Notes: generated by a model from the sequence alone, not told the origin. Positions 2,027 to 7,196 are shown, counted from the stretch's first letter. The stretch is DNA of 8,872 nucleotides from a virus (IMGVR_UViG_2651869780_000012), one strand, 5' to 3'. Made by a program: numbers and translations.

Positions 2027-2216
2027 ACTGCAGGCGCTGCGTCAGGCGCGCCTTGATTTATTAACCGGTAAACGGGTGGTGTCTGTCCAGAAAGATGGTC
2101 GCAGAATTGAATATACGGCGGCTTCTCTGGATGAGCTTAACCGGGCGATCAATGATGCGGAGTCGGTACTGGGGACAACCCGCCGTCGCCGTCGTCCGCT
2201 GGGAGTGAGGTTATGA
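2010..2216 (+). CDS. W: Head completion / head-tail joining protein (lambda gpW-like), 68 aa
   Basis: 68 aa, same length as lambda gpW; LLTGKRVVSVQKDGRRIEYTAAS matches the lambda W core ([24 protein letters not shown] as recalled). GGAGG at 2000-2004, 5 nt before the ATG; overlaps the A 3' end by 17 nt. Confidence 0.9.
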   Translation: MVTVAELQALRQARLDLLTGKRVVSVQKDGRRIEYTAASLDELNRAINDAESVLGTTRRRRRPLGVRL

Positions 2217-3805
2217 AACGAACGCCTGTCCTGATTGATGTGAACGGCGTTCCGCTTCGGGAGAGCCTCAGCTACAACGGGGGCGGTGCAGGATTTGGCG
2301 GGCAAATGGCGGAGTGGTTGCCACCGGCGCAGAGTGCCGATGCGGCCCTGCTGCCCGCGTTGCGTCTGGGGAATGCCCGGGCAGATGATCTGGTGCGCAA
2401 TAACGGGATAGCGGCCAATGCGGTGGCCCTGCATAAGGATCATATTGTCGGGCATATGTTTCTGATCAGCTACCGTCCGAACTGGCGCTGGCTGGGGATG
2501 CGGGAGACTGCAGCAAAAAGTTTTGTCGATGAGGTGGAGGCGGCCTGGTCGGAATACGCCGAAGGGATGTCTGGCGAGATCGACGTGGAAGGGAAACGCA
2601 CGTTTACGGAATTTATCCGTGAAGGTGTGGGCGTTCATGCGTTTAACGGCGAAATCTTTGTGCAGCCGGTCTGGGATACGGAGAGCACGCAACTGTTTCG
2701 TACGCGTTTTAAAGCCGTGAGTCCGAAACGGGTGGACACGCCAGGACACGGTATGGGGAACCGTTTTCTGCGGGCCGGGGTGGAGGTCGATCGATATGGC
2801 CGTGCCGTTGCGTACCATATCTGTGAGGATGATTTTCCGCGCTCCGGGAGTGGACGATGGGAACGGATCCCGCGTGAACTTCCCACCGGGCGTCCGGCCA
2901 TGCTGCATATTTTCGAGCCGGTGGAGGACGGGCAGACCCGTGGGGCCAATCAGTTTTACAGCGTCATGGAACGGCTGAAGATGCTCGATTCCCTGCAGGC
3001 AACACAGCTTCAGTCGGCCATTGTGAAAGCCATGTATGCAGCGACGATTGAAAGTGAACTTGATACCGAAAAGGCCTTTGAATATATCGCCGGCGCGCCA
3101 CAGGAGCAGAAGGATAATCCGCTTATTAATATTCTGGAGAAGTTCTCCAGCTGGTATGACACGAATAACGTGACACTGGGCGGTGTCAAAATTCCGCACC
3201 TTTTCCCCGGTGATGATCTGAAACTACAGACTGCGCAGGATTCAGACAATGGATTTTCGGCGCTTGAACAGGCGCTGCTGCGGTATATCGCCGCCGGTCT
3301 TGGCGTTTCCTACGAACAGTTGTCCCGGGATTACTCGAAGGTCAGTTATTCAAGTGCCAGCGCCTCCGCCAATGAGTCGTGGCGCTATTTTATGGGACGA
3401 CGAAAATTTATTGCGGCCCGGCTGGCCACGCAGATGTTTTCCTGCTGGCTGGAAGAGGCACTTCTTCGGGGGATTATCCGTCCGCCACGGGCGCGTTTTG
3501 ATTTTTATCAGGCGCGATCAGCCTGGTCACGGGCAGAGTGGATTGGAGCCGGAAGAATGGCCATTGACGGGCTCAAGGAAGTCCAGGAATCAGTGATGCG
3601 CATTGAGGCCGGACTGAGCACGTATGAGAAAGAGCTGGCGCTGATGGGCGAGGATTATCAGGACATTTTCCGCCAGCAGGTCAGGGAATCTGCAGAGCGG
3701 CAAAAAGCCGGACTCTCACGTCCGGTGTGGATAGCGCAGGCGTATCAGCAGCAGATAGCGGAGAGTCGCAGGCCGGAAGAGGAGACAACACCACGTGAGA
3801 CGTAA
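2213..3805 (+). CDS. B: Portal protein (lambda gpB-like), 530 aa
   Basis: 530-aa ORF (lambda gpB is 533 aa) in the conserved position between W and C. Start ATG overlaps the W stop (ATGA at 2213-2216). Confidence 0.93.
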   Translation: MKRTPVLIDVNGVPLRESLSYNGGGAGFGGQMAEWLPPAQSADAALLPALRLGNARADDLVRNNGIAANAVALHKDHIVGHMFLISYRPNWRWLGMRETAAKSFVDEVEAAWSEYAEGMSGEIDVEGKRTFTEFIREGVGVHAFNGEIFVQPVWDTESTQLFRTRFKAVSPKRVDTPGHGMGNRFLRAGVEVDRYGRAVAYHICEDDFPRSGSGRWERIPRELPTGRPAMLHIFEPVEDGQTRGANQFYSVMERLKMLDSLQATQLQSAIVKAMYAATIESELDTEKAFEYIAGAPQEQKDNPLINILEKFSSWYDTNNVTLGGVKIPHLFPGDDLKLQTAQDSDNGFSALEQALLRYIAAGLGVSYEQLSRDYSKVSYSSASASANESWRYFMGRRKFIAARLATQMFSCWLEEALLRGIIRPPRARFDFYQARSAWSRAEWIGAGRMAIDGLKEVQESVMRIEAGLSTYEKELALMGEDYQDIFRQQVRESAERQKAGLSRPVWIAQAYQQQIAESRRPEEETTPRET

Positions 3806-5300
3806 TCTTTCACACATTATTGCCGCAGCATTCAATGAACCGCTGCTTCTGGAGCCCGCCTATGCGCGGGTTTTCTTTTGCGCGCTCGGGCGCGAGATGG
3901 GGGCAGCAAGTCTTTCGGTACCACAACAGCAGGTACAGTTTGATGCTCCCGGAATGCTGGCTGAAACGGACGAGTACATGGCCGGAGGTAAACGACCGGC
4001 CCGTGTTTACCGGGTGGTGAACGGTATTGCTGTACTGCCGGTGACCGGCACGCTGGTGCACCGGCTGGGGGGTATGCGGCCATTTTCCGGAATGACAGGC
4101 TATGACGGCATTGTCGCCTGTCTTCAGCAGGCAATGGCGGATAGCCAGGTGCGGGGCGTACTGCTGGACATTGACAGTCCGGGCGGGCAGGCCGCCGGCG
4201 CGTTTGACTGCGCTGACATGATTTACCGCCTCCGTCAGCAGAAGCCGGTCTGGGCACTGTGCAATGACACGGCCTGTTCTGCAGCCATGCTGCTGGCGTC
4301 GGCCTGCTCCCGACGGCTGGTTACCCAGACATCCCGTATCGGCTCCATTGGCGTGATGATGAGCCATGTCAGCTATGCCGGTCATCTGGCGCAGGCCGGT
4401 GTGGATATCACGCTGATTTACTCAGGGGCGCACAAGGTGGATGGCAATCAGTTTGAAGCCTTACCGGCAGAGGTTCGCCAGGACATGCAGCAGCGCATTG
4501 ATGCGGCGCGCCGGATGTTTGCCGAAAAAGTGGCGATGTTTACCGGTCTGTCTGTTGATGCCGTCACGGGAACAGAGGCCGCCGTTTTTGAAGGTCAGTC
4601 CGGCATTGATGCCGGGCTGGCGGATGAATTAGTCAATGCGTCGGATGCCATCAGTGTGATGGCCACGGCGCTGAACAGTAATGTCAGAGGAGGCACTATG
4701 CCGCAATTAACTGCAACGGAAGCCGCCGCGCAGGAGAACCAGCGAGTGATGGGGATCCTGACATGCCAGGAAGCGAAAGGACGTGAACAGCTTGCCACGA
4801 TGCTGGCAGGACAACAGGGCATGAGCGTTGAACAGGCCCGGGCGATTCTGGCCGCGGCGGCACCGCAGCAGCCGGTGGCATCCACGCAGAGTGAAGCCGA
4901 TCGCATTATGGCGTGTGAAGAAGCGAACGGTCGTGAACAACTGGCGGCAACGCTGGCGGCGATGCCGGAGATGACGGTGGAAAAAGCCCGCCCGATCCTG
5001 GCTGCTTCACCGCAGGCGGATGCCGGACCCTCACTCCGTGATCAGATCATGGCACTGGATGAGGCAAAAGGGGATGAGGCGCAGGCTGAACAGCTGGCTG
5101 CCTGCCCGGGAATGACTGTGGAGAGCGCCCGGGCTGTGCTGGCTGCGGGATCAGGTAAGGCAGAACCGGTCTCTGCATCCACAACCGCCCTGTTTGAACG
5201 CATCATGGCGAACCATTCACCGGCAGCGGTACAGGGTGGCGTGCCACAGACGTCAGCAGACGGTGATGCGGACGTGAAAATGCTCATGGCCATGCCATGA
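3795..5300 (+). CDS. C: Prohead protease / scaffold (lambda gpC-like, S49/ClpP-like peptidase family), 501 aa; GTG start
   Basis: N-terminus RRNLSHIIAAAFNEPLLLEPAYARVFFCAL matches lambda gpC (ELRNLPHIASMAFNEPLMLEPAYARVFFCAL). Conserved protease core (NGIAVLPVTGTLV..., PVWALCNDTACSAAMLLASACSRRLVTQTSRIGSIGVMMSH, ITLIYSGAHKVDGN). The frame opens with GTG at 3795, overlapping the B stop by 11 nt; GAGGAG lies ~11 nt upstream. About 60 aa longer than lambda gpC owing to C-terminal repeats. Confidence 0.88.
   Translation: MRRNLSHIIAAAFNEPLLLEPAYARVFFCALGREMGAASLSVPQQQVQFDAPGMLAETDEYMAGGKRPARVYRVVNGIAVLPVTGTLVHRLGGMRPFSGMTGYDGIVACLQQAMADSQVRGVLLDIDSPGGQAAGAFDCADMIYRLRQQKPVWALCNDTACSAAMLLASACSRRLVTQTSRIGSIGVMMSHVSYAGHLAQAGVDITLIYSGAHKVDGNQFEALPAEVRQDMQQRIDAARRMFAEKVAMFTGLSVDAVTGTEAAVFEGQSGIDAGLADELVNASDAISVMATALNSNVRGGTMPQLTATEAAAQENQRVMGILTCQEAKGREQLATMLAGQQGMSVEQARAILAAAAPQQPVASTQSEADRIMACEEANGREQLAATLAAMPEMTVEKARPILAASPQADAGPSLRDQIMALDEAKGDEAQAEQLAACPGMTVESARAVLAAGSGKAEPVSASTTALFERIMANHSPAAVQGGVPQTSADGDADVKMLMAMP
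4686..4693 (+). promoter_or_regulatory. Internal Shine-Dalgarno (AGAGGAGG) for the nested Nu3-like start
   Basis: Strong purine-rich SD core GGAGG at 4689-4693, 4 nt upstream of the in-frame ATG at 4698, inside the C reading frame. Confidence 0.55.
4698..5300 (+). CDS. Nu3: Nu3-like scaffolding protein, translated from an internal in-frame start within C (200 aa)
   Basis: In-frame ATG at 4698 (4698-3795 = 903 = 3 x 301), preceded by AGAGGAGG at 4686-4693. Product begins MPQLTATEAAAQENQRVMGILTCQEAKGRE, matching the lambda Nu3/C C-terminal motif (AAENSRIMGILNCEEAHGREE). In lambda, Nu3 is likewise nested in-frame in the 3' part of C. Confidence 0.6.
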   Translation: MPQLTATEAAAQENQRVMGILTCQEAKGREQLATMLAGQQGMSVEQARAILAAAAPQQPVASTQSEADRIMACEEANGREQLAATLAAMPEMTVEKARPILAASPQADAGPSLRDQIMALDEAKGDEAQAEQLAACPGMTVESARAVLAAGSGKAEPVSASTTALFERIMANHSPAAVQGGVPQTSADGDADVKMLMAMP

Positions 5301-5336
5301 AGTCAGTGCTGACCATCAACAGGAGGTTTTTACAAT

Positions 5337-5684
5337 ATGGTAACGAAAACCATCACTGAACAGCGTGCGGAAGTACGTATTTTTGCCGGTAATGATCCGG
5401 CTCATACCGCCACAGGCAGCAGCGGGATTTCCTCGGCAACACCGGCACTGACGCCCCTGATGCTGGATGAAGCCACCGGGAAACTGGTGGTCTGGGACGG
5501 ACAGAAAGCCGGTAGTGCAGTTGGCATACTGGTACTGCCGCTTGAAGGCACAGAGACGGTACTGACCTATTACAAGTCGGGGACCTTTGCGACGGAGGCA
5601 ATCCGCTGGCCTGAAAGTGTGGATGAACACAAAAAGGCAAATGCCTTTGCCGGCAGTGCCCTGAGTCACGCGGCGCTGCCGTAA
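5337..5684 (+). CDS. D: Head decoration protein (lambda gpD-like), 115 aa
   Basis: NDPAHTATGSSG...TPLMLDEATGKLVVWDG...AVGIL...YYKSGTF...WPE...KKANAFAGSA parallels lambda gpD (GNSDPAHTATAPGG...MTPLMLD...KLVAWDG...AVGIL...FYKSGTF...WPE...AFAGTA). AGGAGG at 5321-5326, 10 nt before the ATG. Confidence 0.92.
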   Translation: MVTKTITEQRAEVRIFAGNDPAHTATGSSGISSATPALTPLMLDEATGKLVVWDGQKAGSAVGILVLPLEGTETVLTYYKSGTFATEAIRWPESVDEHKKANAFAGSALSHAALP

Positions 5685-5691
5685 CACGTTA

Positions 5692-5713
5692 TCAGGCCAC
5701 CGCGGTGGCCTGA
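5692..5713. repeat. Perfect 22-bp palindrome (TCAGGCCACCGCGGTGGCCTGA) in the D-E intergenic region
   Basis: Read directly: positions 5692-5713 are exactly self-complementary (centre CCGCGG). Lies between the D stop (5684) and the E start (5742). Can form an RNA hairpin or be a dyad-symmetric protein binding site. Confidence 0.8.
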
Positions 5714-5741
5714 CTGATTTCTGAATGAAAGGAACTGATTT

Positions 5742-6770
5742 ATGGGATTGTTTACGACCCGCCAGTTACTCGGTTATACCGAACAAAAAGTGAAATTTCG
5801 TGCGCTGTTTCTGGAGCTGTTTTTCCGCCGTACGGTGAATTTCCATACCGAAGAGGTGATGCTGGACAAAATTACCGGAAAAACGCCGGTGGCGGCCTAT
5901 GTCTCCCCGGTTGTTGAAGGAAAAGTGCTGCGTCATCGTGGTGGTGAAACCCGCGTGTTACGTCCGGGCTACGTCAAGCCGAAACACGAATTTAATTACC
6001 AGCAGGCGGTTGAGCGTCTTCCCGGTGAAGATCCGGCTCAGCTGAACGACCCGGCCTACCGTCGTCTGCGTATCATCACTGATAACCTCAAACAGGAAGA
6101 GCACGCCATTGTCCAGGTGGAAGAAATGCAGGCGGTGAATGCCGTGCTGTATGGCAAATACACGATGGAAGGAGACCAGTTCGAGAAAATTGAGGTCGAT
6201 TTTGGCAGGTCGACGAAGAATAACATCACTCAGGGTAGTGGTAAGGAGTGGTCAAAACAGGATCGTGACACGTTCGATCCTACACATGATCTTGACCTCT
6301 ACTGCGACCAGGCCAGCGGTCTTGTGAATATTGCCATTATGGACGGTACCGTCTGGCGTCTGCTGAATGGCTTTAAATTGTTCCGCGAAAAACTGGATAC
6401 CCGTCGCGGCTCTAATTCGCAACTCGAAACAGCGGTGAAAGACCTGGGCGCGGTGGTGTCCTTCAAAGGGTATTACGGCGATCTGGCCATTGTGGTGGCA
6501 AAAACGTCTTATGTGGCAGAGGACGGTACCGAAAAACGTTATCTGCCTGAGGGCTCGCTGGTCCTGGGGAATACGGCAGCAGAGGGCATTCGTTGCTATG
6601 GTGCCATTCAGGATGCGCAGGCGTTGTCCGAAGGTGTGGTGGCCTCTTCCCGTTATCCGAAACACTGGCTGACGGTAGGGGATCCCGCCCGTGAATTTAC
6701 CATGACGCAGTCCGCGCCGCTGATGGTGTTGCCGGACCCGGATGAGTTTGTGGTGGTACAGGTGAAATAA
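5742..6770 (+). CDS. E: Major capsid protein (lambda gpE-like), 342 aa
   Basis: 342 aa (lambda gpE 341 aa) with extensive collinear similarity: PGYVKPKHE, DPAYRR.RII, AIVQVEEMQAVNAVLYGKYTM, DTRRGSNSQLETAVKDLG, GDPAREFTMTQSAPLMVLPDPDEFV. RBS AAAGGA 5728-5733. Confidence 0.95.
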   Translation: MGLFTTRQLLGYTEQKVKFRALFLELFFRRTVNFHTEEVMLDKITGKTPVAAYVSPVVEGKVLRHRGGETRVLRPGYVKPKHEFNYQQAVERLPGEDPAQLNDPAYRRLRIITDNLKQEEHAIVQVEEMQAVNAVLYGKYTMEGDQFEKIEVDFGRSTKNNITQGSGKEWSKQDRDTFDPTHDLDLYCDQASGLVNIAIMDGTVWRLLNGFKLFREKLDTRRGSNSQLETAVKDLGAVVSFKGYYGDLAIVVAKTSYVAEDGTEKRYLPEGSLVLGNTAAEGIRCYGAIQDAQALSEGVVASSRYPKHWLTVGDPAREFTMTQSAPLMVLPDPDEFVVVQVK

Positions 6771-6821: not shown

Positions 6822-7196
6822 ATGGCAACGAAAGAGCAAAATCTGAAACGGCTTGATGAACTGGCCCTGATTCTGGGGCGTGAGCCGGATATATCCGGGA
6901 GTGCCGCAGAGATAGCGCAGCGGGTGGCAGAATGGGAAGAGGAAATGCAGTCATCCGGCGATGATGTACAGGTTATGAATATGGATATCCGGGAGAGGGA
7001 AAACGCGGCTCATGATGTTCGTGAGGATACATCCGGTGCGTTAACGCGCATCAGAGTTCTGACCTGCCTCCATCTCTGTGGCATTGATGGTGAAACAGGG
7101 GAATCCGTTGAGATTGCGGATGTTGGTCGGGTGATTCTGATTATGTCCTCAGATGCAAAAACACACGTTGATGGTGGAATGGCTGTTTATGCGTGA
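6822..7196 (+). CDS. FI: DNA packaging / head assembly protein FI-like, 124 aa
   Basis: Acidic ~125-aa protein in the lambda FI position. N-terminal region (KEQNLKRLDELALILG...AAEIAQRVAEWEEE) resembles lambda FI (KDELIARLRSLG...EELALRVAELKEE); the rest is divergent. Start chosen at ATG 6822 with AGGGGGA 6811-6817; the track's upstream ATG at 6774 would run through the terminator hairpin. Confidence 0.72.
   Translation: MATKEQNLKRLDELALILGREPDISGSAAEIAQRVAEWEEEMQSSGDDVQVMNMDIRERENAAHDVREDTSGALTRIRVLTCLHLCGIDGETGESVEIADVGRVILIMSSDAKTHVDGGMAVYA

Follow-up and report, generated by a model that had tools for sequence, protein, structure and literature searches.

The C-terminal region of a phage-21-type head protease and scaffolding protein was identified to contain an ancient tandem triplication of a helical scaffold-core module of about 45 residues, which is likely to be an interaction module; we put the probability of this reading at roughly three in four. 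The module is present in a gpC-like protein of 501 amino acids encoded in a stretch of viral DNA of 8,872 nucleotides (IMGVR_UViG_2651869780_000012), referred to as the window in the following. Among the sampled representatives of gpC-like protease-scaffold proteins, about 80% have this unit as the core of their scaffold region. Since the window is a near-identical copy of the phage 21 head operon, which is common in E. coli, the finding is correct but ordinary; few prophage modules of E. coli are as common as the phage-21-type head module, and the observation has little value as a discovery.

The Head Operon in the Window

By ORF calling, the window was assigned to a lambda-type head operon, of which it represents the left end. 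The genes for the terminase large subunit (98-2026), a W-like protein (2010-2216), the portal (2213-3805), the gpC-like protein of 501 amino acids (3795-5300), a D/shp-like decoration protein (5337-5684) and an E-like major capsid protein (5742-6770) are followed at the 3' side by head-completion and tail genes. The order terL, W-like, portal, gpC-like, shp/D-like and E-like is collinear with the phage 21 record M81255, which places the window among the lambda-like head operons.

Most of the 7.3 kb shared with phage 21 beyond the first ~600 nucleotides is 95-100% identical. Positions 1-600, comprising the upstream region and the part coding for the N-terminus of the terminase large subunit, show 37-79% identity to phage 21 in bins of 200 nucleotides and are a mosaic joint; the affected portion of the large subunit is the one pairing with the small subunit. 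Because these first ~600 nucleotides are unlike phage 21, the source of the window is a related prophage or phage and not phage 21 itself. Two patches of the capsid gene, 6001-6200 and 6401-6600, are 92% and 87% identical to phage 21, compared to 97-99.5% for the remainder of the gene, and may have arisen by local recombination. The gene at 6822-7196, flanked by those for the major capsid protein and the FII-like protein, corresponds to "ORF1" of M81255 (7599-7973), to which the record assigns neither a homologue nor a function.

The Protease Domain and the Nested Scaffold Gene

The gpC-like gene (3795..5300, plus strand) is the homologue of phage 21 gene 5 and combines an N-terminal head maturation protease with a C-terminal scaffold region. 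It matches phrog_53, "head maturation protease", with an E value of 6e-228. An S49 (SppA/ClpP-like) protease domain was delimited by Pfam and AlphaFold to residues 1-298 (3795..4688, plus strand), and the score for Peptidase_S49 (PF01343) of 120.7 bits over residues 146-293, against a cut-off of 24.9, assigns the protein to this family. S162 and K214 are invariant across the 102-sequence family alignment and presumably form the catalytic dyad, a candidate assignment made from prior knowledge of S49 enzymes and lambda gpC. On this basis, the 501-residue protein is a putative S49 head protease.

A second gene, the homologue of phage 21 gene 6, is nested in frame within the first. An internal ribosome-binding site, GGAGG, is located at 4687..4691 (plus strand), coinciding with the gene 6 ribosome-binding site of M81255 (5464-5468, an offset of 777), and is followed by the ATG of a reading frame at 4698..5300 (plus strand), which codes for a Nu3-like scaffolding protein of 200 amino acids consisting almost wholly of the three units and the tail. 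This start, taken from the phage 21 records, is putative; it corresponds to Met302 and lies within a linker, residues 298-306, that is disordered in the AlphaFold model. Gene 6 is annotated in M81255 and, as a scaffolding protein of 200 amino acids, also in the complete phage 21 genome OL657228 of 2022. The record OL657228 additionally contains two "CII binding site" features within gene 6, on the minus strand at loci 2409-2422 and 2643-2656 (about 4703-4716 and 4937-4950 of the window), which are based on the pattern ttgynnnnnnttgy alone; no sign of a function was seen for either.

In lambda, the counterpart of the gene 6 start signals is AGGAGG with an ATG (AGGAGGgcgaATG) at gpC Met309, which would give a product of 131 amino acids. 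This site, at lambda 5332-5344 (NC_001416; locus 2533-2545), matches positions 4687-4700 of the window. Lambda records place the start of Nu3 elsewhere, at 5132 (201 amino acids, RefSeq) or at 5035 (233 amino acids, OM418626). The Nu3 start commonly annotated for lambda may thus far have been given incorrectly or inconsistently.

Three Units in the Scaffold Region

The first-pass annotation of the window described three diverged tandem copies of one motif in the C/Nu3-like C-terminal region, at residues 317-355 (4743-4859), 370-405 (4902-5009) and 417-452 (5043-5150). Its region coordinates and sequences were found to be exact, with R317 starting at nucleotide 4743 and H472 ending at nucleotide 5216, and the similarity between the copies proved to be highly significant. 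In pairwise comparisons, the units gave BLOSUM62 local scores of 100, 81 and 90, whereas shuffled sequences scored about 22 +/- 4.5; the resulting z values are 12.5-18.8, and the observed scores were not attained in any of 5000 shuffles. A family profile, constructed from about 100 family units, matched the 501-residue protein exactly three times, at residues 313-358, 367-408 and 417-452. Unit 1 was assigned to residues 313-358 (4731..4868, plus strand; profile E 5.8e-22), unit 2 to residues 367-408 (4893..5018, plus strand; E 2e-17) and unit 3 to residues 414-455 (5034..5159, plus strand; E 5.6e-15). Unit 1 is the counterpart of the single unit of lambda, with which it aligns in the full-length alignment. 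Units 2 and 3 retain the family consensus (EAxG.E, LA, MTxExA, LAA), and the net charges of units 1, 2 and 3 are 0, -3 and -3.

Downstream of the units, a short motif helix (TTALFERIMANH) is present at residues 461-472 (TALFERIMANH; 5175..5210, plus strand), which was modelled by AlphaFold as a separate helix with moderate confidence. The segment ERIMANH had been taken for a degenerate fourth start of the repeat. This reading was not borne out, since the family unit profile gave no match in the ERIMANH segment, and the segment represents instead a family-wide motif following the unit, which is also present in single-copy proteins including that of lambda. In most single-copy family members the motif xLDxxM...P..G is located about 8-15 residues downstream of the unit; the lambda version is TALDRLMQGAPAP, and in the lambda gpC sequence, which was fetched and aligned, one unit is followed by TALDRLMQG. 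In both linkers between the units, SEADRIMA and SLRDQIMA, this motif seems to run directly into the beginning of the next unit. The protein ends with an acidic C-terminal tail, residues 473-501 (5211..5297, plus strand; ending ...DADVKMLMAMP), which has a pLDDT of 41-59 and occupies the position at which other family members have a variable acidic stretch and a short amphipathic terminus.

The repeat had also been proposed to account for about 60 extra residues relative to lambda. The figure itself holds, with a net difference of 62 residues, but it does not reflect a simple gain of units. The two extra units with their linkers and the longer tail add roughly 100 amino acids compared to lambda, and a lambda-specific segment offsets part of this gain. 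This segment of 36 amino acids, rich in Ser, Thr, Ala and acidic residues (STTVSATASQADVTDVVPATEGENASAAQPDVNAQI; lambda locus about 2560-2670, alignment columns 317-352), is located directly before the unit in lambda gpC/Nu3 and is absent from the phage-21-type protein.

Previous Annotation in Phage 21

The gpC-like gene is 98.9% identical in nucleotides to phage 21 gene 5 (M81255 4572-6077; OL657228) and to its counterparts in several recently isolated E. coli phages. The encoded protein differs from phage 21 gp5 in 9 of the 501 residues, and two of these substitutions, A373V and D427A, are located inside the units. In M81255, gene 6 holds three repeat_region features, each with the comment "function unknown; putative": the Tri1 box (5542-5645, corresponding to 4765-4868 of the window), the Tri box (5682-5792; window 4905-5015) and the Tri3 box (5823-5936; window 5046-5159). 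They coincide with the three units of the first-pass annotation and correspond to units 1, 2 and 3, respectively. Judging from the GenBank feature table of M81255, the repeats are already known as the Tri1, Tri and Tri3 boxes. In the accessible literature on the phage 21 head genes and on the structure of Nu3, no mention of the Tri boxes was found.

Age of the Duplication and Selection on the Units

Between the units, DNA identity is 58-67%, and synonymous sites are saturated (pS 0.65-0.75), with pN values of 0.21-0.34 and dN/dS ratios of 0.06-0.28. Saturation together with these low ratios implied that the duplication is old and that every copy has been kept as a protein, which agrees with the earlier proposal of an old duplication with copies diverged in DNA. 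Tandem Repeats Finder did not detect a DNA-level array in the window, as expected given the divergence. An origin by slippage or by an assembly artefact, which had already been doubted, was rejected, because the synonymous sites are saturated and the array is present in both phage 21 records and in 1870 complete E. coli genomes. The phage 21 sequence was assembled identically from Illumina and dideoxy data, according to its authors (PMC9119081).

A lower limit for the age of the triplication was obtained from Salmonella phage Gifsy-1, which also contains the three-unit array. Units in the same position of Gifsy-1 and the window are 71%, 80% and 63% identical, whereas units in different positions are 49-60% identical. 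This position-by-position correspondence implied that the triplication is older than the split between phage 21 and Gifsy-1. Unit 1 is the best conserved, with the highest profile score and identities of 80% to its counterpart in P0144, a homologue, and of 71% to that in Gifsy-1. As a protein, the unit motif is conserved in homologues of just 33-40% identity.

Copy Number in the Family and in E. coli Prophages

When 1.84 billion cluster representatives were searched exhaustively with HMMER, 150 diverse gpC-like proteins were obtained. Among the 123 representatives of at least 400 amino acids, one unit was identified in 98, no detectable unit in 24, and three units in a single protein, P0144, which is 61% identical to the protein of the window. 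One copy is the rule at the family level. The statement of the first-pass annotation that the motif occurs essentially once in lambda gpC/Nu3 was confirmed by the single unit in the alignment. In a search of a 5.8-billion-protein collection with a profile of the 45-residue unit alignment, the only matches were short partial sequences belonging to the same E. coli proteins.

Though rare among family representatives, the three-copy form is commonplace by abundance. The 603-nucleotide scaffold gene is present in 1870 of 5426 complete E. coli genomes, in up to 5 places per genome and with up to 99.8% identity. Among phage records, the three-unit array was found in about 20 of the 119 that matched, and all matches in the phage collection that span the whole gene have the three-copy length of about 1506 nucleotides.

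Variants in copy number were drawn from the 120 closest database proteins, all of which are from E. coli or Shigella prophages. Two units are present in a form of 451 amino acids (a unit 1/2 hybrid and unit 3) and in one of 452 amino acids (units 1 and 3). About 2.5 units remain in forms of 482 amino acids, in which the second half of unit 2 is deleted and which is present on at least 1000 contigs, and of 472 amino acids, in which the first half of unit 2 is deleted. Besides the three-unit form of 501 amino acids, a form of 551 amino acids with four units, including a unit 3/2 hybrid, and a single protein of 657 amino acids (P0001) with six profile matches, five full and one truncated, were identified. 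The variants with 2, ~2.5, 4 or 6 units are otherwise 88-99% identical proteins, and the occurrence of hybrids suggests that units have recombined unequally. These natural variants suggest that the exact number of units is tolerated rather than critical and that three copies are not strictly required.

The protein P0001, encoded on a 5.59-Mb E. coli contig, carries an internal duplication of 156 amino acids, which comprises the end of the protease domain, the internal start region, units 1 and 2 and half of unit 3, with the junction EAKGAEA|RLTDELVNASD; it could be real and recent, or an assembly error. Two further proteins, P0080 (721 amino acids) and P0085 (577 amino acids), are gp5-like through the end of unit 3 (...AAGSG) and continue, on inspection, with unrelated tail-fibre-like sequence. 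They probably represent prophage deletions or rearrangements by which the head protease gene was fused to tail genes.

Predicted Structure of the Units

The 501-residue protein was modelled with AlphaFold using the 102-sequence alignment. The protease domain (residues 1-298) was predicted with a pLDDT mostly above 90, and the units with a pLDDT of 90-94 (unit 1, residues 307-355), 58-72 (unit 2, residues 367-403) and 76-84 (unit 3, residues 414-452). For the linkers (residues 298-306, 360-365, 406-411 and 457-459) the pLDDT was below 50. With an overall pTM of 0.53, the units appear to be strung together like beads. When unit 3 and the tail were modelled separately with 51 family sequences, a three-helix module with a pLDDT of about 91 was obtained, the helices of which comprise residues 414-419, 428-435 and 442-452 in this fragment model. 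Each unit is predicted to be an independent small three-helix module, with disordered linkers between the modules. A search of the PDB sequences with the 200-residue scaffold gave nothing meaningful, the best match being a ribosomal protein with an E value of 0.54.

Possible Function and Origin of the Repeat

The scaffold region would be translated twice, as part of the 501-residue protein and alone, from the internal ribosome-binding site and ATG, as the 200-residue gene 6 product. By this nested translation of the shared region, protease and scaffold have the three modules in common. The unit probably serves as a protein-protein interaction module of the scaffold, acting in self-association and/or in contacts to the capsid protein or the portal, and the protease would be co-targeted into the procapsid via the same unit. 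With three units in a row, a multivalent chain would result. Lambda Nu3 was shown by two-hybrid analysis to interact with itself, C and E, and it is required for portal incorporation (PMC3224144).

Other scaffolds usually have their capsid-binding element at the very C-terminus, which in the present protein is formed by the tail and not by the units; by analogy, this speaks against the units as binders of the capsid protein.

Similar (D/E)R(I/L)M sequences are present both where the unit begins and in the motif downstream of it, and unequal recombination between them is the probable origin of the triplication. The same kind of exchange would account for the alleles with 2, ~2.5, 4 and 6 copies in E. 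coli prophages.

It was further considered whether the number of units per chain sets the valency of scaffold and protease, and thereby the scaffold:capsid stoichiometry or the fidelity of assembly, as the first-pass annotation had proposed in part. The one observation that points in this direction is the purifying selection on every copy, and we regard this extension as possible but doubtful. If it were true, the copy series of 1 (lambda), 2, ~2.5, 3 (phage 21, Gifsy-1), 4 and 6 would represent functional tuning and not neutral length variation. The natural alleles with 1-6 copies could be used to test scaffold valency against procapsid assembly in the lambda system.

The opposite possibility is that the extra two units are a neutral spacer lengthening the scaffold, while unit 1 alone does the work. 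Such a division would be in line with the better conservation and higher profile score of unit 1, with the abundance in E. coli prophages of variants lacking half or all of unit 2 (the 482-residue form on at least 1000 contigs), and with the absence of lambda's 36-residue segment from phage 21 gp6, the length of which the extra units could make up. However, a mere spacer is difficult to reconcile with the maintenance of the family consensus in units 2 and 3, with dN/dS values of 0.06-0.28 between units despite saturated synonymous sites, and with the uniform three-copy length of about 1506 nucleotides in the whole-gene matches of the phage collection. Gifsy-1, with a DNA identity of only about 71%, has also kept units 2 and 3 in their positions. 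A neutral spacer is considered unlikely.

Unit 3 (LAACPGMTVESARAVLAAG) gave a weak match to the Pfam HHH family (E 0.03-0.19, 12.1-14.5 bits), which suggested a role of the units as helix-hairpin-helix-like modules that would give scaffold or protease an affinity for DNA. This score is far under the Pfam cut-off of 24 bits for HHH (PF00633), the units are neutral to acidic, and scaffolds exit the procapsid before or during DNA entry, which makes a DNA-binding function very improbable. Hardly credible at all is a selection of the repeat as nucleic acid, for protein-binding sites or RNA structure in the late transcript with the protein repeat as a by-product, since against the two pattern-matched CII features in gene 6 of OL657228 stand the low DNA identity among units (58-67%), the failure of Tandem Repeats Finder to detect an array, the concentration of differences at synonymous sites (pS 0.65-0.75 versus pN 0.21-0.34), which indicates constraint at the protein level, and the conservation of the motif as protein down to 33-40% identity. 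An old triplication of a helical module that serves in protein interactions remains the preferred reading.

Comparison to Known Systems

Nested genes for a protease and a scaffold that share their C-terminus are present in several other systems, like UL26/UL26.5 of herpesviruses, gpO of phage P2 and I/Z of phage Mu. In these systems, the protease and an abundant scaffold have a common C-terminal region, and both are built into the procapsid. To our knowledge, none of them has a sequence or fold relationship to the gpC-like protein, and we know of no tandemly triplicated module in any of them.

The coat-binding helix-turn-helix of the P22 scaffolding protein is likewise a small helical scaffold module and a candidate analogue for a capsid contact. 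In P22, however, this domain is formed by a basic hairpin of two helices at the very C-terminus, whereas the phage-21-type units are predicted three-helix modules, which are repeated, lie internally and have a neutral to acidic character. Neither in sequence nor in structure was a match of the units to the P22-type coat-binding helix-turn-helix found, and the units are not assigned to this type.

Among the relatives of the gpC-like protein, lambda gpC/Nu3 is 58% identical overall and is encoded in an operon with the same order of portal, C/Nu3, D and E. It shares the protease domain, the unit, the following motif and the internal ribosome-binding site with an ATG before the unit, but differs by the single unit, the extra 36-residue segment before it and the shorter tail. 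The gpC homologue of Gifsy-1 (STM2605.Gifsy1, 498 amino acids) has three units in the same positions, but its DNA is about 71% identical over the matched part of the gene and its tail sequence is distinct. The closest system is gene 5/6 of phage 21, coding for the head-tail preconnector gp5 and the scaffold gp6, which is the same gene with the same nested gene 6 and the same ribosome-binding site, and from which the window differs by the nine amino acid substitutions and by the first ~600 nucleotides.
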